A stretch of 64,000 nucleotides of DNA from a virus (Duplodnaviria; Caudoviricetes), in the IMG/VR virus record IMGVR_UViG_3300034061_006011. One strand, written 5' to 3'. Both the position numbers and the translations under genes were made by a program. Numbering within the stretch: position 1 is the first letter of the stretch; each line of letters begins with the position of its first letter. Positions 27,795-64,000 of the stretch are shown piece after piece. The notes under the pieces were generated by a model. The model saw nothing but the letters and a program-made list of their open reading frames with translations. It did not search any database and was not told the origin of the DNA.

Positions 27795-30308
27795 TTATTC
27801 TATGCTATAATCTTGGCTCTCCATGTCTTCTTCAGAAGCATAATCTTGAATGCTGAGATCATACTTTTCAATGTCTTCTTCACTTGGTTCTGGCAAAGGT
27901 TCAACAGATGTTGATGGTGCGCTAGGTTGAGGAGTTTCAGCGCCGCCCATGGCTGGAGGTGCGCCTTCTGGTGGTGCTTCAGACGGAACTTCAAGTTGTT
28001 TATTTGGTCCTTCTTCAGTTGCACCAACTTCTTCATCTTCTTGTGAAGGAATACCAACACCGAGAAGTTGTGGATTCTGTTGCAATACTTGCAATCTTGC
28101 ATCTTCAAGTTTCTGCAATTTGCTTCTTGCAAGAATATCTTTGGTTTCTTCTTCTGTGTAATGCATCCAATTACGCAATAAATCAAAGTCAGAAATAAGA
28201 CCAGCTGATTTCAAACTTGTTACATTTTGAATTCTATTGTTGACAATTTCAGCTCTACTAAGTTCTCTCCATTCAGATGGCGGTGTCATCTGAATCTTAA
28301 GATCATCATAAGTTTCAGGTGGAAAACCACGCATATGTAAATGTCTTTGTGCTATTTCAAAAATACCATCTTCCAAAGATGACTGATATCTTTCAACAGT
28401 TCTTGCAAATTTTACATCTTGTGAAGACAAAGTAATCTTTGTCTGTGCTGGATCATCAACATTCAAATAGTTTTTAGGGAAGTTTAAAGCTGTCAAAAGC
28501 TTAAGTCTAAAGTAGATTGCATCATCGATTTCACCAAGGTTCTGGGCACCCGGTAATGTTTCAATTTTTGTATTTGAATTTGGTCTTGTTGGAATCCAGT
28601 AATCTTCTTCAACTGCTGGTGGCTGATACCTTTCTTCAACAGAAGAAGATCCACCAAAGCCATTTTGGTTCAAGCTTACCTTTTTCTTTCTAAACTGATC
28701 TTTCATTCTTTCAATGAATGCTTCAGCTTTAAAACCGGGAAGTTGACCAACATCAATATAAAACACTCTGCGTTCAGGTGCTCTGGCAAGACGGTATGTT
28801 AACATACTGTCTTCCATCAATCTAAGCTGATAAGCTGGACCTCTTGCTGGTTCAATGATTGAACTGCCATAGGGATAGAATTGTCTTCTGTCTTCATTAA
28901 TTCTTATATGGGCAATTTGCTCAGGAGCGAATCTAATTGCCGTAGCCATCTGAATTTCTTGATCTGTAGCTACAGTTACAGGCGCTCTAACCAAGCTTTG
29001 GTAATCTGGTCCTTCTTTTGATTGTTGGAATTCAATTACTTTACCTTTTGTCGTTTCAATTCTGTAAATGCTTTCTGGGGGAAGCCTTTGAATTTTTAAA
29101 ATACCATCACTAGGGGAATCAAGGCTTGTAATTAGTTCGTAAAACAAATCCCCATAAACCATCAAACTCTTAAAGTCTGACCAAATTCTCTTATTAAAAT
29201 TAAGCATTTGTCTTGACATAAGAAGAAATTCAACTTCTTTTCTTACATCATCGTTAGATGCTTCAATCTTTAAAACATTTCCATGTTCATCTTTTTGGCA
29301 GTTATGAACAATTGTTTGGTCTGTAGCAAAATTGTGATGACCGTCTACTGTTAGGTCATACACATCTTGCATCGGTCCTTTAAATTTACCAATTACTTTT
29401 CTATGATCTGTTCTGCTTTTAGCAAGATTTTTTAGTTCCTTGTATGTAAATCCAAATCTCTTAAGTCTTTCTTTCACTGTAACCCAAGTTTCATCAATCA
29501 TGGACAACATTTGATCCATATTGAGACCTTGGTTGATTAGTCTTGCATAAAAATTAATTCTTTCATATTTTTGAATTGATTTACCTGCTCGCCATTCATC
29601 AACAAGTTGTCTTTCTGTTACCCAACCGTTATTGAATGTGAATACTCTTGGGAATTGTCCAGAGATTAAGCTATTATGTTCTGTATCGGGCTTTTCTCTA
29701 TAAAATGGCATTAGGTCATCGCCAACTTTAATATCGCCAGCTTGAATCCATTCTCCCGTCCTTAATAGGACTTTGTGATCTTCTGTGCATTCAAGCTTAC
29801 CACCATTATCAAAAATCAGTTCAACTGTTTCTGCTGTTTTAGTTTTTCTTGGATGATGACCCCATCCAAGTGTGTAATCTTTCTTTTGAAAATCGTAGCA
29901 ATACACTAAAAATTTATCTTCAGAATTATCTTCTGTTAAGCTTTTAATTGTTTTAAAGCCGAATGGAGTTGCAACTTTTGTATTACCTGAGACGCATGCT
30001 TCATCAGAGAAAATAGTTAAACATGTTTCAACTTCTGGTACAGCTCTTAATCTTTCATATTCCTTATATCTTGAAATTCTATTACTTACTGTGGACAGGT
30101 CAATAAAGTCCTGAGTTTCACGAAGTCTAATGAGTCTGTTATCTTGTCCGTTCCAATAAGATCCATCTGGAGAAATACTGGGAATAGAATCGGGGCTGAT
30201 AATACCAGCACCAACGAGTTCTTTAGGTTCTAGCTTACGGCTTAATGGATCTGCCGAAAAAGCATAGGTGAAAGTTTTGAAAATATCAGACCAAAGTGGC
30301 GTAGGCAT
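27795..30308 (-). CDS. gp20: T4 gp20-like portal protein containing an intein
   Basis: RLARAPERRVFYIDVGQLP, EEDYWIP.R, IETLPGAQNLGEIDD..YF, LNFP. Confidence 0.95.
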   Translation of the reverse strand: MPTPLWSDIFKTFTYAFSADPLSRKLEPKELVGAGIISPDSIPSISPDGSYWNGQDNRLIRLRETQDFIDLSTVSNRISRYKEYERLRAVPEVETCLTIFSDEACVSGNTKVATPFGFKTIKSLTEDNSEDKFLVYCYDFQKKDYTLGWGHHPRKTKTAETVELIFDNGGKLECTEDHKVLLRTGEWIQAGDIKVGDDLMPFYREKPDTEHNSLISGQFPRVFTFNNGWVTERQLVDEWRAGKSIQKYERINFYARLINQGLNMDQMLSMIDETWVTVKERLKRFGFTYKELKNLAKSRTDHRKVIGKFKGPMQDVYDLTVDGHHNFATDQTIVHNCQKDEHGNVLKIEASNDDVRKEVEFLLMSRQMLNFNKRIWSDFKSLMVYGDLFYELITSLDSPSDGILKIQRLPPESIYRIETTKGKVIEFQQSKEGPDYQSLVRAPVTVATDQEIQMATAIRFAPEQIAHIRINEDRRQFYPYGSSIIEPARGPAYQLRLMEDSMLTYRLARAPERRVFYIDVGQLPGFKAEAFIERMKDQFRKKKVSLNQNGFGGSSSVEERYQPPAVEEDYWIPTRPNSNTKIETLPGAQNLGEIDDAIYFRLKLLTALNFPKNYLNVDDPAQTKITLSSQDVKFARTVERYQSSLEDGIFEIAQRHLHMRGFPPETYDDLKIQMTPPSEWRELSRAEIVNNRIQNVTSLKSAGLISDFDLLRNWMHYTEEETKDILARSKLQKLEDARLQVLQQNPQLLGVGIPSQEDEEVGATEEGPNKQLEVPSEAPPEGAPPAMGGAETPQPSAPSTSVEPLPEPSEEDIEKYDLSIQDYASEEDMESQDYSIE
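29301..29996 (-). mobile_element. Intein (232 aa) in the portal gene
   Basis: Block A CVSGNT after DEA; block B CTEDHKVL; block F VYDLTVDGHHNF; block G IVHN followed by Cys. Confidence 0.93.
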
Positions 30309-58549: not shown

Positions 58550-59713
58550 TCAACTGCCCCTTCTATCCATAATAACTTCACCCCTGCAACCATCTATAAT
58601 TGAATGGTAAGAGGCTGCAATTTCATTAAATCTACTGTCCAAACCATCTAGCAAACTATCAAAATTTTCCGGTTCCCTACCTGCAAATAATTTTTGCAAC
58701 TTTACTTTGTAATTAGGATCAACTATCGGCAACCTTCCTCCTTGAGTTAACCAAAATACAAATATCTCCATTTGTAACTCCCCAGAATTTAAAGCCTGTT
58801 GTAAATCCATTTTCGATTTTATAAATTGACCCGATCTGGCTCCAGATATTATCTTAAACGCTTCCTTTATACTCCAAATACTAGGAAACAAAATTGTTAG
58901 AAAATCTATAGTTATATTCCCTATTCTTTTTTGTATTTCTTCATCAGTATACAAAGCTTCTTTATTACCATCTTTCAACACATCAATCCAACCTTGATAA
59001 AACTGTGGATACATCGGACTAACCAAAAAGTCTTTCAAAAGTTCCTTAACTAAATTTTCAGCTCTAACACAATCCTCCTGAATTTTATTCATGTATGTGT
59101 TGCCATAATCTGCTGTACGAGCAAGTGACCCTCTATCAAAAATACCATGTGCAAATGTGTGAAGAATCAACCAAGGAGTCAAAGGATCAGCAGCAGTACT
59201 CGTCTTCATGTAAACAATATCATTCTCACTTATGTTCATTCCGTCACGACCATAAAAATAATTTTTTAATTGATTGTAGTTGTCTTTAGTTAACTCTTTA
59301 CTTATGGTAAATCCTGACTTAATATCATCTTTAGGATAACCAAAATAGAAATGTATGTTCACAATACCAAGCTTCTCTAACTTCTTTTCAAGACCAGACA
59401 TTATCAATTTAAAATTTCTAGGATTCTCTATAATTTTCTTGTCACCACCTTTAAAATTGTGATCCCAACCAGAACTACCATATCGACTACCAACATCATC
59501 AGAATCAATATCCTTGTCTGGAAAATGCTTTTTATACTCATCACCATAATTTGAACCAAATTGAGAAGACCAACCATAATCATTAGACGGCGGCTGATTT
59601 TGCAAACCCTGTGAAAGATTATGCTGAACCGGATAACCTCCAACTGACCCTAAAACTTCATCAATTGTAAATTTATTGTCATTAATCAAAAACCACTCTT
59701 TAAATCTTTTCAT
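58550..59713 (-). CDS. CTS-tagged protein, zincin-like HxxxH; paralog of 46533..47348
   Basis: MKRFKEWF; LTPWLILHTFAH; ends CRGEVIMD. Confidence 0.72.
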   Translation of the reverse strand: MKRFKEWFLINDNKFTIDEVLGSVGGYPVQHNLSQGLQNQPPSNDYGWSSQFGSNYGDEYKKHFPDKDIDSDDVGSRYGSSGWDHNFKGGDKKIIENPRNFKLIMSGLEKKLEKLGIVNIHFYFGYPKDDIKSGFTISKELTKDNYNQLKNYFYGRDGMNISENDIVYMKTSTAADPLTPWLILHTFAHGIFDRGSLARTADYGNTYMNKIQEDCVRAENLVKELLKDFLVSPMYPQFYQGWIDVLKDGNKEALYTDEEIQKRIGNITIDFLTILFPSIWSIKEAFKIISGARSGQFIKSKMDLQQALNSGELQMEIFVFWLTQGGRLPIVDPNYKVKLQKLFAGREPENFDSLLDGLDSRFNEIAASYHSIIDGCRGEVIMDRRGS

Positions 59714-59851
59714 AATACATATCTATCCCACAAAAACAAAAACCCTACCACCCCCAAAAAAATACCCCGGCGCATTTTTTTAAACCCCATACCTTCATAT
59801 ATTTTTAACCTATTACCACATATACACAATACCATGTCACAACATTTCTGT

Positions 59852-59975
59852 AAAATGAAATAAAATTATTCCAGATTTTTAGAAAATGAAATAAAATTAT
59901 TCCAGATTTTTAGAAAATGAAATAAAATTATTCCAAAATTTTAGAAAATGAAATAAAATTATTCCAAAATTTTTT
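59852..59975. repeat. AT-rich 31-bp tandem repeat x4
   Basis: AAAATGAAATAAAATTATTCCAGATTTTTAG units at 59852, 59883, 59914, 59945. Confidence 0.92.
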
Positions 59976-60156
59976 AAATAAATCAAGATGAACAACAAAA
60001 GGGAGCCATGATGGCGGGGGGATACCCCCCTACCCCACTCTCTTTTGGGGAATGTCAAGTGCAATTATGTTATGGCAACTTTGTAACATAATTAAAAAAC
60101 CCCTATAAAACAAGTGCGGCGCAATTGTGTTATCACGCCGCCTGCCTATTCTGTTA

Positions 60157-60327
60157 TCACCTTACCCACTTCATAGTTATGTTAGCCTGAACCTTTGGCT
60201 TATCCCCCTCCCATTCAGTATTGATATTCACTTCTGTTATCTGCCTTGTCGGCTTGCGGTCATGGTGTTGAACGTGTTGGCAACCTACCGACAACACCAC
60301 AACCAATAACATAATTAACCTTACCAT
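60157..60327 (-). CDS. Small lipoprotein-like protein
   Basis: Start 60327 (AAGGA SD); hydrophobic leader ending in lipobox-like LSVGC. Confidence 0.6.
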   Translation of the reverse strand: MVRLIMLLVVVLSVGCQHVQHHDRKPTRQITEVNINTEWEGDKPKVQANITMKWVR

Positions 60328-60470
60328 GGTCATCATCCTTGAATGCCGATTGATCCCCACACTACTATTATCGGCATTCAACCAACCAGACTTGAACCAA
60401 CCTAAAGATTCTTCCTAACCACATTTTAGTATCCTAAGTTTGTCCGCATTGTCTCAATTGAAATAACAAT

Positions 60471-60503
60471 AAAAAAACCCCCTTCTCCGGGTGGAGAAGG
60501 GGG
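60471..60503 (-). terminator. Rho-independent terminator
   Basis: CCCCCTTCTCC / GGAGAAGGGGG stem plus A7 (U-run on minus strand). Confidence 0.9.
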
Positions 60504-60524
60504 CTGTTGATTATTGTTAGCCTA

Positions 60525-61190
60525 TCATTCAGATAACAGAATCATTTCTAATTCCCCCCCACGGATTCCCATTGAAGGGAATCCCTTGGCTGAATAAATT
60601 CTTTCGATTGCGTCTTCGGACGTTAGCCCGAAGACGTTTTGCAATTGTTGGAACAGGCACTTCAAATGGCGATCCAGTGCCAACTTTGTTATCACAATAA
60701 CAAAGTTTTCAATGGTGCCGTTAACACGGCACGCCGTCCCAGTGGGACGGTTGATTTCAAAATTAACCGTCCCAAGACGGTTCACATCCCACTTATAACG
60801 CCCACTGGCGGATTGATCCGCCGGTGTTGGTAGTGGGTGTTGACAATTACAATAAGTATCCTGATCCGCATTGAAATAGTCCGCCCAATCAATGGGCGTT
60901 CCAATGCACGCCCAAAGATGCCCAAACGAATGGGCGATTTTACGGGACACCCGCAATTGTGCGGGTGTCATTTTTGAAGTCTCAAAACTGAATTCATCGG
61001 GATACCGAAGTGGCTCGCCACTCCAGTGGCGTGAACAGTCTCGCTTGCCCCGTAGGGCAAGCGATGCGATTTCAGCGGCATTGGGTGCCGCAGCGTTCTT
61101 CCTGATCCAGTGGTTGAGATACGCAACACGACCGGTTGCGGTTGCGGTTGCGGTTGCGGTTGCGGTGGCGGTGGCGGTTGAAATGGTCAT
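60525..61190 (-). CDS. Early hypothetical protein with (TA)n N-terminus
   Basis: Start reassigned to 61190 (GAGAG SD after structured leader). Confidence 0.65.
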   Translation of the reverse strand: MTISTATATATATATATATGRVAYLNHWIRKNAAAPNAAEIASLALRGKRDCSRHWSGEPLRYPDEFSFETSKMTPAQLRVSRKIAHSFGHLWACIGTPIDWADYFNADQDTYCNCQHPLPTPADQSASGRYKWDVNRLGTVNFEINRPTGTACRVNGTIENFVIVITKLALDRHLKCLFQQLQNVFGLTSEDAIERIYSAKGFPSMGIRGGELEMILLSE

Positions 61191-61269
61191 GTTCGATACT
61201 CTCATGCCCGTTTCAGGTACGGGTGGACCTTGGCTAAGGTGAACCACAACATGCGGTTCACCTACGACT

Positions 61270-61297
61270 ATCTTAACATCATCCCCAACTAGGTCAA
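61270..61297 (-). promoter_or_regulatory. Sigma70-type early promoter
   Basis: TTGACC-16-TAAGAT with TG extension. Confidence 0.75.
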
Positions 61298-61496
61298 GAG
61301 AAAATCCACCCAAGAGAAAAGATTCCTCCCATCCACATTTTAGTATCCTAGTGTTGTCTCAATTGTCCAGCAATAGGATTCCTCCCATCCACATTTTAGT
61401 ATCCTAGTGTTGTCCACATTGTCCAGCAATAGGATTCCTCCCATCCACATTTTAGTATCCTAGTGTTGTCTCAATTGTATCAATTCAGATAACAAT

Positions 61497-61529
61497 AAAA
61501 AAACCCCCTTGACTTGTCTGTCAAGGGGG
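61497..61529 (-). terminator. Rho-independent terminator
   Basis: CCCCCTTGAC / GTCAAGGGGG stem plus A-run; same at 61950. Confidence 0.9.
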
Positions 61530-61552
61530 TGGTTGATTAAGTTAGCCGATTG

Positions 61553-61759
61553 TTATTTAATTTTGTCGAGCCACATATCGATGATTCCAGAAACCAGTTT
61601 CCTTTCCTTTGGTTTCATTCTTAGAAACATTTTTAGATGTTCAACGATTTTCTCGAATCGTTCCAGCTCATTTTTGATTCTTTTAAGTTGTTTGTCTACC
61701 CTCTTTGGGCGAGAAACCTTTCCATCAACAATGCGGCTTGATTCGTTTTCAGTTCTCAT
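61553..61759 (-). CDS. Small early hypothetical protein
   Basis: Within a promoter/leader/terminator cassette. Confidence 0.65.
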   Translation of the reverse strand: MRTENESSRIVDGKVSRPKRVDKQLKRIKNELERFEKIVEHLKMFLRMKPKERKLVSGIIDMWLDKIK

Positions 61760-61833
61760 GGTATTCGATCCATACGGTTTTCAGGGGAACCGGGAACCTA
61801 GAAGCGGCACACTATGCGCCGCCTCATGCATTC

Positions 61834-61861
61834 ATTCTACCATCATCCCCAACTAGGTCAA
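61834..61861 (-). promoter_or_regulatory. Sigma70-type early promoter
   Basis: TTGACC-16-TAGAAT with TG extension. Confidence 0.8.
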
Positions 61862-61949
61862 GGGAAAAGAAAAGATTCCTCCCATACACATTTTAGTATC
61901 CTAGTGTTGTCTCAATTGTCCAGCACAATATCAAAATTGAAATAACAAT

Positions 61950-61982
61950 AAAAAAACCCCCTTGACTTGTCTGTCAAGGGGG
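61950..61982 (-). terminator. Rho-independent terminator
   Basis: Identical to 61497..61529. Confidence 0.9.
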
Positions 61983-62006
61983 CTGTAGTTTTGTTATCTG
62001 ATATTG

Positions 62007-62273
62007 TTATTTTGTGAACGCCTCCAGTATTGCCTTCATGGCAACGTCTCTTATTTCACTCTTAGGCAAACGCATGATTGCCCGCATACAAGAGATTTTA
62101 TTCTTGTAGCTTTTGAGTAGGTCATCCAATGGCGTTTTCTCCCTTGCGTGGGGTATTTCCGGCAGATTAAACCGCTGTGGCTTATCGCACTTAATGTATT
62201 CCTTGTATTCCTTTTCCCGCTTGTCGGCGGTTGGAGAAACGGTTGCGGCAACGGCGTTACGCTCAATTTTCAT
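62007..62273 (-). CDS. Small early hypothetical protein
   Basis: Within a cassette; leader nearly identical to that of 61759. Confidence 0.65.
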   Translation of the reverse strand: MKIERNAVAATVSPTADKREKEYKEYIKCDKPQRFNLPEIPHAREKTPLDDLLKSYKNKISCMRAIMRLPKSEIRDVAMKAILEAFTK

Positions 62274-62347
62274 AGCAGTCGATCCAACCGGTTTTCAGGG
62301 GAACCGGGAACCTAGAAACGGCACACTATGCGCCGCCTCATGAAGTC

Positions 62348-62375
62348 ATTCTAACAACGTCCCCAACTAGGTCAA
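62348..62375 (-). promoter_or_regulatory. Sigma70-type early promoter
   Basis: TTGACC-16-TAGAAT with TG extension. Confidence 0.8.
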
Positions 62376-62583
62376 GAGAAAATCCACCCAAGAGAAAAGA
62401 TTCCTCCCATCCACATTTTAGTATCCTAAAGTTGTCCGTATTGTATCTTAAGAGGAATTCCTCCCATCCACATTTTAGTATCCTAAAGTTGTCCGTATTG
62501 TATCGTAATAGGAATTCCTTCCATCCACATTTTAGTATCCTAAAGTTGTCTTAATTATCTAGAACGATATCAAAAAAGGGTGT

Positions 62584-62700
62584 AATAGTGTTAGCCGATA
62601 ACGAAATAGCGGAGATAACGAAATGGCGGGAATAGTGTTAGCCGATAACGAAATAGCGAAGATAACGAAATGAAGGTAATAGTGTTAGCAGATAACGAAA
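62584..62700. repeat. GATAACG / AATAGTGTTAGC array 1
   Basis: 5 GATAACG and 3 AATAGTGTTAGC copies. Confidence 0.88.
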
Positions 62701-62716
62701 TTAAAGATATGAAAAC

Positions 62717-62749
62717 AAAAAAACCCCGCAAGCCTTTCGACTTGCGGGG
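62717..62749 (-). terminator. Rho-independent terminator
   Basis: CCCCGCAAG / CTTGCGGGG stem plus A-run; same at 63785. Confidence 0.9.
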
Positions 62750-62770
62750 CAGATTGACCGGCAGGGGTTG

Positions 62771-63283
62771 TCATGTTGTCGTGTGTGATGTAATCTTGAT
62801 CACATTATTGGAAACACCTTGATAAACCGGAGACATCTTACCCGCATGAGTGAACTCAATTCCGTAATTGGCACCGACACGGAATTCGGTTTCCGTTCCG
62901 GGTTCATAAGCCACGAAACCGATATTCGTTGCCTCATGAACAAAGTTCACGATGCGAGTTGGTTTCCCATATCCCCAGCGTACTGGTGAAACCCCTACGC
63001 ATATCACTTCAATATTGTAATTACCCGGCTCAATCGCTTGAGTGATTGGCGTTGGCAATTTAATAGCTGCAATTGGTGCAAGTGGTGCAATTGGTGCAAT
63101 TGGTGCCACTGGTGGCACTTGCGCCACTGGTGCCACTGGTGGCACTTGCGCCACTTGCGCCAACGCTGCCCTAAGCGTTGCCAATTGTTCGGGGTTGAAA
63201 CCCCGAACAAGATCAAGCATCGACTGGCTTGCATCGATTGCCACTGGTGCGGAAACGGACTTGGCGTTCTTGCGGGGTGCCAT
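62771..63283 (-). CDS. Early hypothetical protein with Ala/Pro/Val repeat linker
   Basis: Start reassigned to 63283 (GGAG SD; MAPRKNAK). Confidence 0.65.
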   Translation of the reverse strand: MAPRKNAKSVSAPVAIDASQSMLDLVRGFNPEQLATLRAALAQVAQVPPVAPVAQVPPVAPIAPIAPLAPIAAIKLPTPITQAIEPGNYNIEVICVGVSPVRWGYGKPTRIVNFVHEATNIGFVAYEPGTETEFRVGANYGIEFTHAGKMSPVYQGVSNNVIKITSHTTT

Positions 63284-63362
63284 GGTCATAAACTCCATGC
63301 CAGTTTCAGGATACTGGCGGAACCGGTTAAGGTGAACCACAACATGCGGTTCACCTACAAGC

Positions 63363-63391
63363 ATCATAGGGAAACCGTTTCACTAGGTCAA
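63363..63391 (-). promoter_or_regulatory. Sigma70-type early promoter
   Basis: TTGACC-17-TATGAT. Confidence 0.78.
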
Positions 63392-63604
63392 GCGAATTCC
63401 CAAGAAAGTTTCCTTACAAATTCTTAAGATCCGCGGACCCCCCCCCCTCCCATCCACATTTTAGTATCCTAAAGTTGTCTCAATTGTCCAGTCTGGTAAC
63501 AAAAAAGGAATTCCTCCCATCCACATTTTAGTATCCTAAAGTTGTCTCAATTGTTTCTAAAAAAAACAAAATTAAATTATAATATTTAATTTCATAATTA
63601 AAAT

Positions 63605-63770
63605 AGTTATCAGATAACGAAAGTGGCAATAATGTTAGCCGATAACGGAATAGGGGAGATAACGGAAACGGTAATAGTGTTAGCGGATAACGTAAGTGGG
63701 AATAGTGTTAGCGGATAACGGAAGTGGGAATAGTGTTAGCGAATAACGGAATAGGGGAGATAACGAAATT
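63605..63770. repeat. GATAACG / AATAGTGTTAGC array 2
   Basis: 6 exact GATAACG plus 1 variant; 3 AATAGTGTTAGC plus 1 variant. Confidence 0.88.
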
Positions 63771-63784
63771 ACCGATATGAAAAC

Positions 63785-63817
63785 AAAAAAACCCCGCAAG
63801 CCTTTCGACTTGCGGGG
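63785..63817 (-). terminator. Rho-independent terminator
   Basis: Identical to 62717..62749. Confidence 0.9.
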
Positions 63818-63841
63818 CAGGATTGCCGATATGTTATTCGA

Positions 63842-64000
63842 TTATGCACCAAGCCAGATGATCTTGGTGTTCTTATTGGCAAGATGACGGGTGAGCAGGA
63901 AGACGAGATCAGTGTCTTCCTTTTTTGAAATCATCTTGATTACGTCACCGTTTCGATCAACGGTCAATTGAACCGAAGTTCCTTCAATCTGGTTCATTCC
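63842..64000 (-). CDS. 3' part of a small hypothetical protein (may start beyond the window)
   Basis: Open frame ...MNQIEGTSVQ..IIWLGA* ending just before the terminator. Confidence 0.5.
   Translation of the reverse strand, partial: GMNQIEGTSVQLTVDRNGDVIKMISKKEDTDLVFLLTRHLANKNTKIIWLGA

Follow-up and report, generated by a model that had tools for sequence, protein, structure and literature searches.

A covarying hairpin beside the ribosome binding site in PeSL-like cassettes of large uncultured T4-type phages

Background

The stabiliser in the 5' untranslated region of ompA consists of a 5'-terminal hairpin and a second hairpin next to the ribosome binding site (RBS). In phage T4, the operator of gene 43 combines a hairpin with a sequence overlapping the RBS, and binding depends critically on the loop bases; the T4 protein RegA is a repressor of about 30 early mRNAs (PMC3014915). 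PeSL cassettes of T4-type phages comprise a strong early promoter, a terminator stem-loop, a Shine-Dalgarno (SD) sequence and a start codon, and act as crossover points (Arbiol et al. 2010, PMC2839356; Comeau et al. 2014, PMC4122927). Portable promoter-terminator cassettes of this kind are thought to drive T4-type gene shuffling; the case described here also has a structured, sequence-constrained leader. It was found in a 64,000-nt stretch of the virus record IMGVR_UViG_3300034061_006011 (the window, meaning this whole stretch at its full length), where four one-gene units, A to D, carry in their leaders a hairpin just upstream of the SD, referred to as hairpin 2.

According to its sequence, the source is an uncultured T4-type phage from a group of very large freshwater (lake) phages. 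Among its large reading frames in the window are those for a T4-type major capsid protein (Gp23), an intein-bearing portal, and a large terminase, the latter two also of T4 type. Units A to D belong to an island of one-gene units that adjoins parB and is richer in G+C than the rest; in metagenome relatives, it is about 11 kb long.

Structure and covariation of hairpin 2

The initial annotation had reported a covarying hairpin, in mRNA sense, in four leaders, each time preceded by a first hairpin. On the minus strand all four copies of hairpin 2 have the reported positions and sequences, with that of leader C reaching 6 bp (62307-62288), and hairpin 1 precedes every one of them in minimum-free-energy (MFE) folds. 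For comparison, first-round leaders were collected behind the promoter word TTGAC[CG]T[AG]G (34 distinct); covariance model R1 was built from 16 leaders, and R2 is its rebuilt version. The structural features of the four leaders are the following.

61237..61263, minus strand: hairpin 1 of leader A, beginning at or beside the expected transcription start (MFE fold, sequence)
61225..61229, minus strand: conserved spacer motif GGUYC, here GGUCC, of leader A (leader comparison)
61207..61223, minus strand: hairpin 2 of leader A, CCCGU / ACCUGAA / ACGGG (19 bits with R1, 52.6 bits with R2)
61801..61825, minus strand: hairpin 1 of leader B (MFE fold)
61775..61792, minus strand: hairpin 2 of leader B, CGGUU / CCCCUGAA / AACCG, with GGUUC ahead at 61798-61794 (68 bits)
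62315..62339, minus strand: hairpin 1 of leader C (MFE fold)
62288..62307, minus strand: hairpin 2 of leader C, 6 bp, CCGGUU / CCCCUGAA / AACCGG (66 bits)
63330..63356, minus strand: hairpin 1 of leader D (MFE fold)
63299..63318, minus strand: hairpin 2 of leader D, GCCAGU / AUCCUGAA / ACUGGC, with GGUUC ahead at 63324-63320 (55 bits)

The three different stems reported for the window (CCCGU, CGGUU twice and GCCAGU, on the minus strand) all pair, and the window alone yields three because two of the four leaders share one stem. The classes compared are given below.

Stem class 1: 5' arm ACCCGU, 3' arm ACGGG(U/C)
Stem class 2: 5' arm GCCAGU, 3' arm ACUGG(C/U)
Stem class 3: 5' arm CCGGUU, 3' arm (A/G)ACCG(G/U/A)
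Stem class 4: 5' arm C(C/U)GAUG, 3' arm CAUCGG

Across 30 distinct sequences, both partners vary at five of the six stem pairs; pairing holds in 95.5% of cells, compared with at most 59% when the 3' partner is slid by 1-3 columns. At least six separate compensatory double changes distinguish the CCCGU, CCAGU, CGGUU, and CGAUG classes. The five inner pairs show no disruption, and the outermost pair is often open. Furthermore, G.U and U.G pairs are present on the sense strand, where the opposite strand would have A.C mismatches, and the element thus fits an RNA in the gene's sense. Both the covariance models and the pairing statistics bear out the covarying hairpin: hairpin 2 is a structure maintained by covariation. 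Hairpin 1 likewise falls into four sequence classes with compensatory differences.

As for chance occurrence, the window holds 37 CCTGAA sites on both strands, of which only five have a flanking stem of at least 5 bp: those of the four leaders and a single AT-rich site attributed to chance. Such a stem is expected by chance at 3.4% of CCTGAA sites. MFE folds recover hairpin 1 in every leader of the window and hairpin 2, in its described form, in all but leader B, where the MFE fold pairs the hairpin 2 stretch otherwise and the centroid leaves it open.

Distribution of the element

An exact look-up of the gene C product led to ten metagenome contigs spanning the same island, and a scan of metagenome contigs with the upstream repeat led to 26 further stretches. 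Model R1 reported 109 matches, 30 of them distinct, in the 257 kb of sequence searched, and in the 64-kb window it found only the four leaders. With all filters off, R2 assigns members at least 44 bits and the best noise at most 11 bits, again with four matches in the window. Homologues of gene D at 47-63% amino-acid identity yielded three more contigs (one of 304.6 kb) with the same island and the same hairpin classes; these supply 11 more distinct leaders, for a total of 41. Another island-bearing contig is 238 kb long. Further instances of the hairpin, for which the initial annotation had suggested a covariance search, therefore exist in related metagenome contigs. The motif occurs as 5-6 copies in a row per genome, downstream of parB. 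In the 304.6-kb relative it is found five times, all downstream of parB, and is absent from the approximately 17 kb of early-type genes examined upstream.

Regarding other collections, the nearest sequenced relative via the capsid protein (LR756511.1, an uncultured 595-kb phage, 76% amino-acid identity) has no DNA match and no match with R1 or R2. Neither megablast nor blastn gave a match in the phage collection, and scans of IMG/VR with the upstream repeat, the commonest hairpin, and parB relatives returned no match. The species-genome scan gave five single matches, about the number estimated for chance, none of them with the RNA motif. The Rfam search, also suggested initially, found no family of Rfam 15 at the gathering threshold across the whole window, and the sub-threshold matches in 59800-64000 sit on terminators, not on leaders. 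The element is real, structurally constrained, and uncatalogued, and its occurrence is limited to a single group of large freshwater phages of T4 type and to the parB-adjacent island.

Conservation of the loop and the spacer

The loops of hairpin 2 seen so far are ACCUGAA, CCCCUGAA, AUCCUGAA, AUCCCUAAA, ACCGUAA, ACCUAAA, ACCUUAA, and CACCUUAA. Their constant part consists of CC, two free bases, and AA (CC-N-N-A-A); it abuts the 3' arm and has 1-3 free bases on its 5' side, and the closing pair is U-A, U.G, or G-C. According to the initial annotation, all copies keep CCUGAA and close with U-A; this holds within the window only, because the relatives show other loops and G-C or U.G closing pairs. 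The GGUYC spacer is as constant as the loop and ends 0-1 nt ahead of the stem. Loop CC and AA and spacer GG are invariant in the 41 distinct sequences, and the hairpin 1 loops, the stems, and the SD-to-AUG spacer vary between classes. This difference argues for sequence selection on loop and spacer, which both look selected for their sequence. The conserved spacer and the variability of CCUGAA, as well as the shuffling of the promoter-leader cassette described below, had not been noted initially.

Each loop variant also has a stop triplet (UGA or UAA), which shares the reading frame of the downstream gene only in units B and C; by chance, the two free loop positions would create such a triplet in 6 of 16 cases, and these triplets are possibly meaningless. 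In the leader of parB (metagenome contig L002, 4640-4690), an 11-bp stem contains CCUGAAA in its 3' arm, with UUUCUUUCAGG as partner, and this leader is not scored as a member by the model. The free 5' arm of this stem would complement the CCUGAAA loops of other leaders, which may be chance.

Position relative to the Shine-Dalgarno sequence

The 3' arm of hairpin 2 ends 13-16 nt ahead of the start codon in 34 of 34 first-round leaders (14-16 nt for the window copies) and 2-3 nt before the SD core (GGA, GGAG, GAG, or GGG), in agreement with the fixed place before the RBS that had been recognised initially. Several MFE folds lengthen the stem further, with spacer UYC pairing the first SD bases across a two-base bulge. 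Thus, the MFE fold of leader C pairs GGUUC (62312-62308) with the SD GGAUC (62285-62281), and in leader D UCC can pair with the SD GGA (63296-63294). In the model-fitted alignment, the fit of which leans towards the model, pairing at the three basal positions reaches 98.9%, and one C-G pair is exchanged for A-U. In most classes, the spacer UYC could pair the first three SD bases, giving a longer stem and a partly closed SD. The predicted probability of an unpaired SD is 0.2-0.8; in these predictions SD closure is partial, not a lock.

Exchange of leaders and genes

About 15 gene families, all lacking Pfam and PHROG matches, use the two-hairpin leader. Recombination joins the classes of both hairpins, the SD segments, and the genes in different combinations. 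The MAPRKNAKSV gene is preceded by the CCAGU class or, in other strains, by the CCCGU class, the MFKLSRNGNRVS gene has the CGGUU or the CGAUG class depending on the strain, and the MNNTFGLVGNIP gene is preceded by the same hairpin with two different SD segments behind it. Gene E keeps the same stem with loop CACCUUAA in one genome and CCCCUGAA in another, the two differing by a handful of point changes. Stem classes are interchangeable before one gene. The same leader before different genes and different classes before the same gene amount to PeSL-like crossover behaviour.

Nucleotide identity is higher in the leader than in the cargo, both for gene D (82% versus 68%) and for gene E (93% versus 85%), and the gene D protein drops to 47-63% identity in other contigs that retain the same hairpin classes. 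The gene content of the island varies between otherwise near-identical contigs. Behind one and the same leader, parB alleles of such contigs are only 65% identical at the protein level (L002 versus L004 and L038); to judge from these sequences, even parB is exchanged as a cassette, with the boundary near the start codon.

Interpretation of the element

Hairpin 2 would represent the RBS-proximal half of a two-hairpin 5' leader of about 75-85 nt within a portable PeSL-like cassette. It would act as a sense-strand RNA and, on a bound message, sit at the platform edge of the 30S subunit. GGU and CC-N-N-A-A stay fixed as the stem changes, which makes them probably the surface that a common factor recognises; such a factor would most likely be a protein. 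The carrier genes would then form one post-transcriptional group, similar in its logic to the T4 gene 43 hairpin operator or the multi-gene RegA regulon, with the element setting or gating their translation. An operator for one shared factor would fit the constancy of loop and spacer while the stems change, the unvarying SD distance, and the occurrence before many genes. Our preferred, still tentative, reading is therefore an RBS-adjacent RNA element in a portable PeSL-like cassette that may set or gate translation and is probably read by a factor. The transcription start, any influence on translation or decay, and the factor itself are inferred from sequence. A more specific version is possible, if doubtful: the GGU spacer and the CC-N-N-A-A hairpin would be bound as an operator by a dedicated RNA-binding regulator of phage or host origin, which would switch the early genes of the island post-transcriptionally.

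Several observations weigh against this reading. The basal helix has just 3 bp, the CCCGU class needs an extra bulge, and SD closure is modest and uneven. Transcription and its start are predicted from consensus promoters. The search for a partner by Pfam, PHROG, and protein-atlas comparison over the island genes gave no candidate binding protein. The stem classes are possibly just four independent lineages within one phage group, and the constancy of loop and spacer could stem from frequent cassette recombination instead of a reader. As for known regulators, CsrA is absent among the precomputed Pfam matches in about 40 kb around the island of a relative, and a crude signature search of the available sequences was also negative.

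Recombination is central to a different explanation, namely that the leader is a structural insulator: both hairpins protect the message and shield the RBS from recombined genes, any stable hairpin would do, and the likeness of loops and spacers reflects recent shared ancestry and continuing cassette recombination. The ompA leader has a similar two-hairpin layout, and other early leaders of the same island have one hairpin only. Hairpin classes, SD segments, and genes do shuffle freely, as in PeSL cassettes (PMC2839356), and gene content differs among near-identical contigs. However, the stems have diverged at five of six positions with loop CC..AA and spacer GG unchanged in all distinct sequences, and the hairpin 1 loops, in contrast, differ between classes; an insulator is unlikely on these grounds, if still a serious candidate. 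The 8-14 nt single-stranded segment between the hairpins suggests instead a processing or decay signal, in which hairpin and GGUYC mark or block cleavage by a host or phage endoribonuclease and time the decay of early messages. A single-stranded segment between two hairpins is the layout typical of RNase E entry sites. T4 RegB, in turn, cleaves early SDs at GGAG (PMC3014915), a sequence also present in leader D. Such a signal is nevertheless improbable, given that no nuclease candidate was found and that RNase E-type recognition does not need a conserved loop.

Two hairpins right behind a promoter and strong terminators after every unit, in one orientation, could also point to processive antitermination, either protein-dependent and boxB-like, as the initial annotation had considered, or by put-like hairpins that act directly on RNA polymerase and allow it to read through the terminators between units. 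The comparison with boxB fails on the loop, which has 7-9 nt with CC-N-N-A-A instead of a GNRA-like pentaloop of the GAAAA, GAAGA, or GACAA type, and on the island, which has no boxA-like sequence (YGCUCUUUA-like, at most one mismatch, beyond window position 59702). Moreover, the leaders match no Rfam family, each unit has its own promoter, the element stands at a fixed distance from the SD, and neighbouring cassettes with the same kind of terminator lack it, which makes antitermination quite improbable. A similarly slight chance is left to a DNA-level element, be it a recombination linker, a folded single-strand exchange site, or a DNA-binding operator: crossovers map around the element, and more than one structural context within the island features the 8-mer GGTTCACC or a relative of it, but a stem that changes around a fixed loop is unlike a dyad operator, the wobble pairing is specific to one strand, every copy of the element is situated in a transcribed leader and in the sense of the gene, and no recombinase was seen among the island genes. 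Finally, a pseudoknot or switch, with spacer GG(U) pairing loop (A)CC, the 3' loop adenines in the groove, and competition with the SD-closing extension, would explain both invariant motifs. Its geometry is allowed (2-4 nt between the helices, 3-4 nt after CC) and 78% of cells pair; however, the helix has only 2-4 bp (2 bp in the CCAGU class), would by our own estimate be unstable alone, and shows no covariation, because spacer GG and loop CC never vary. This makes it very improbable.

Five other candidates were rejected. For a coding leader, the frame is open in A and D but closed by the loop stop in B and C, and the stems covary without a conserved peptide. A start codon right after the hairpin is not consistent with the full set, as NUG is common there, not universal, and is better read as the beginning of the SD. 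Pairing between loop and SD is sterically impossible with a linker of only 2 nt, an antisense RNA on the loop would lose pairing at the variable loop positions, and an intrinsic attenuator would need a U run, which is missing.

Under the preferred reading, a gene entering the cassette would inherit a promoter, a terminator, and probably shared post-transcriptional control. If a factor reads the loop, the element would define a new phage translational regulon in very large uncultured phages and provide a compact, natural, interchangeable leader part, testable in E. coli-type expression systems. If the dedicated regulator exists, the T4 RegA regulon would have a hairpin-specific counterpart carried in a mobile cassette, with captured genes enrolled at once. 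If there is no factor, the leaders would still present a clean natural case of selection for a hairpin beside the RBS.

Organisation of the island

The G+C content of the window is 25-41% until about 60 kb and 44-45% across the last 4 kb. Between 60.5 and 64 kb every gene is on the minus strand and stands alone between an intrinsic terminator and a consensus promoter. The predicted promoters have TTGACC, 16-17 nt, and TAnnAT at the four window sites, and likewise in all relatives; hairpin 1 begins 6-8 nt after the predicted -10 hexamer. GC-rich stems of 11-13 bp followed by T runs behind every unit are predicted intrinsic terminators. Apart from the leaders, the units comprise the following features.

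61270..61297, minus strand: predicted sigma-70-type promoter of unit A (TTGACC, 16 nt, TAAGAT)
60525..61190, minus strand: gene A, 221 amino acids, without known family; SD-like GAGAG at 61203-61199, AUG at 61190
61834..61861, minus strand: predicted promoter of unit B (TTGACC, 16 nt, TAGAAT, with TG ahead of the -10)
61553..61759, minus strand: gene B, 68 amino acids, without known family; SD-like GGAU at 61771-61768, AUG at 61759
61503..61530, minus strand: predicted intrinsic terminator of unit B
60476-60505, 61955-61984, 62723-62750, and 63791-63818: equivalent predicted terminators
62348..62375, minus strand: predicted promoter of unit C
62007..62273, minus strand: gene C, 88 amino acids, without known family; AUG at 62273
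63363..63391, minus strand: predicted promoter of unit D (TTGACC, 17 nt, TATGAT)
62771..63283, minus strand: gene D, 170 amino acids from the AUG behind the SD (AUG at 63283)

Gene callers often prolong the start of gene D through the leader, giving 198 amino acids. Genes A and D contain in-frame tandem repeats of strain-dependent length, with a 6-bp unit encoding Thr-Ala runs in gene A (window 61133-61180) and a 9-bp unit encoding Pro/Val/Ala-rich repeats in gene D (window 63062-63124).

The intergenic stretches of the island are assembled from reused parts. Their order is terminator, in some units arrays of 26-28-nt repeats, a repeat spaced by about 57 bp, promoter, and hairpin 1, followed downstream by a short spacer, hairpin 2, an SD-like purine run, and the AUG. 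The arrays of the 26-28-nt unit, at window 62582-62701 (three copies) and 63598-63752 (five copies), lie between a terminator and the following promoter, about 1-2.5 kb from parB, which is located just past the window end (L002:4678-5808). The core of this unit is TGTTAGC(C/G)GATAACG, an imperfect palindrome that we take to resemble parS and KorB operator sites, and the arrays are likely ParB binding sites. The other repeat, with core TAGGATACTAAAATGTGGATGGGAGG, is present in one to three copies directly upstream of each -35, 56-57 bp apart when multiple. At least seven copies are found in window 60389-63571 (e.g., at 61415-61495, 62438-62575, and 63424-63571), and inverted copies of the core lie upstream of parB (L002:3930-4677). 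This repeat is a candidate site for an island-wide transcription factor. In the 304.6-kb relative, a 232-amino-acid gene with a sigma-70 region 4 domain (L054:3920-4618) is located among early-type genes about 14 kb upstream of the island.

The last island unit (window 60157-60381) has a 74-amino-acid product, the start of which resembles a signal peptide or lipobox. Its leader (60382-60470) differs from the others, having a single 10-bp hairpin against an AAGGA SD and no TTGACC promoter. At the border between the island and the adjacent sequence with 31% G+C there are five tandem copies of the 31-bp AT-rich unit ATTTTTAGAAAATGAAATAAAATTATTCCAG (window 59813-59998), upstream of a 387-amino-acid gene at 58550-59713. 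Elsewhere in the window, the intein splicing domain corresponds to residues 120-336 of the T4-type portal gene (27795-30308).

Comparison with known systems

With lambda nut sites the element shares a small promoter-proximal hairpin, a purine-rich 3' half of the loop, and a place upstream of terminators. In contrast to nut, it has N(1-3)-CC-N-N-A-A loops and no GNRA-like pentaloop, keeps a fixed SD distance, and is accompanied by a promoter in each unit. As for an N-like protein, the search was limited to the island genes, which have no Pfam or PHROG match.

The ompA stabiliser has the same layout of 5' hairpin, single-stranded spacer, second hairpin, and SD, with the true 5' end being predicted in the present case. 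To our knowledge, no sequence-conserved loop common to many genes has been reported for the ompA hairpins, whereas here a conserved loop is common to many genes.

Among T4 systems, RegA offers the parallel of one phage protein controlling many early messages; its sites, however, are AU-rich stretches without structure that overlap with the AUG. In the gene 43 operator, too, a short hairpin precedes an RBS in a T4-type phage, and its loop bases (3' AC or AA) are sequence-specific; the corresponding arrangement is found here, with a hairpin of 5-6 bp and a 7-9 nt loop adjoining the RBS upstream, 2-3 nt before the SD core. The gene 43 operator differs in having a UAAC-type loop, in belonging to one gene, and in being bound by the gene's own product, whereas CC-N-N-A-A precedes about 15 unrelated gene families.

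The likeness to PeSL cassettes extends to the recurring composite architecture, which combines a strong early promoter of sigma-70-like type with a terminator stem-loop, an SD, and a start codon; in both cases the units flank genes of unknown function in variable T4-type regions and provide crossovers for gene gain, loss, and replacement. By sequence, a promoter and a terminator stem-loop are both recognised in the repeated units of the island, and variable flanked genes are present as well; hairpin 2 is not a described PeSL component. In PeSL cassettes, the described stem-loop is a terminator upstream of the promoter, with no structured leader between promoter and SD. The cassette of the present phages adds a two-hairpin 5' leader, upstream repeats spaced by 57 bp, and parS-like arrays.

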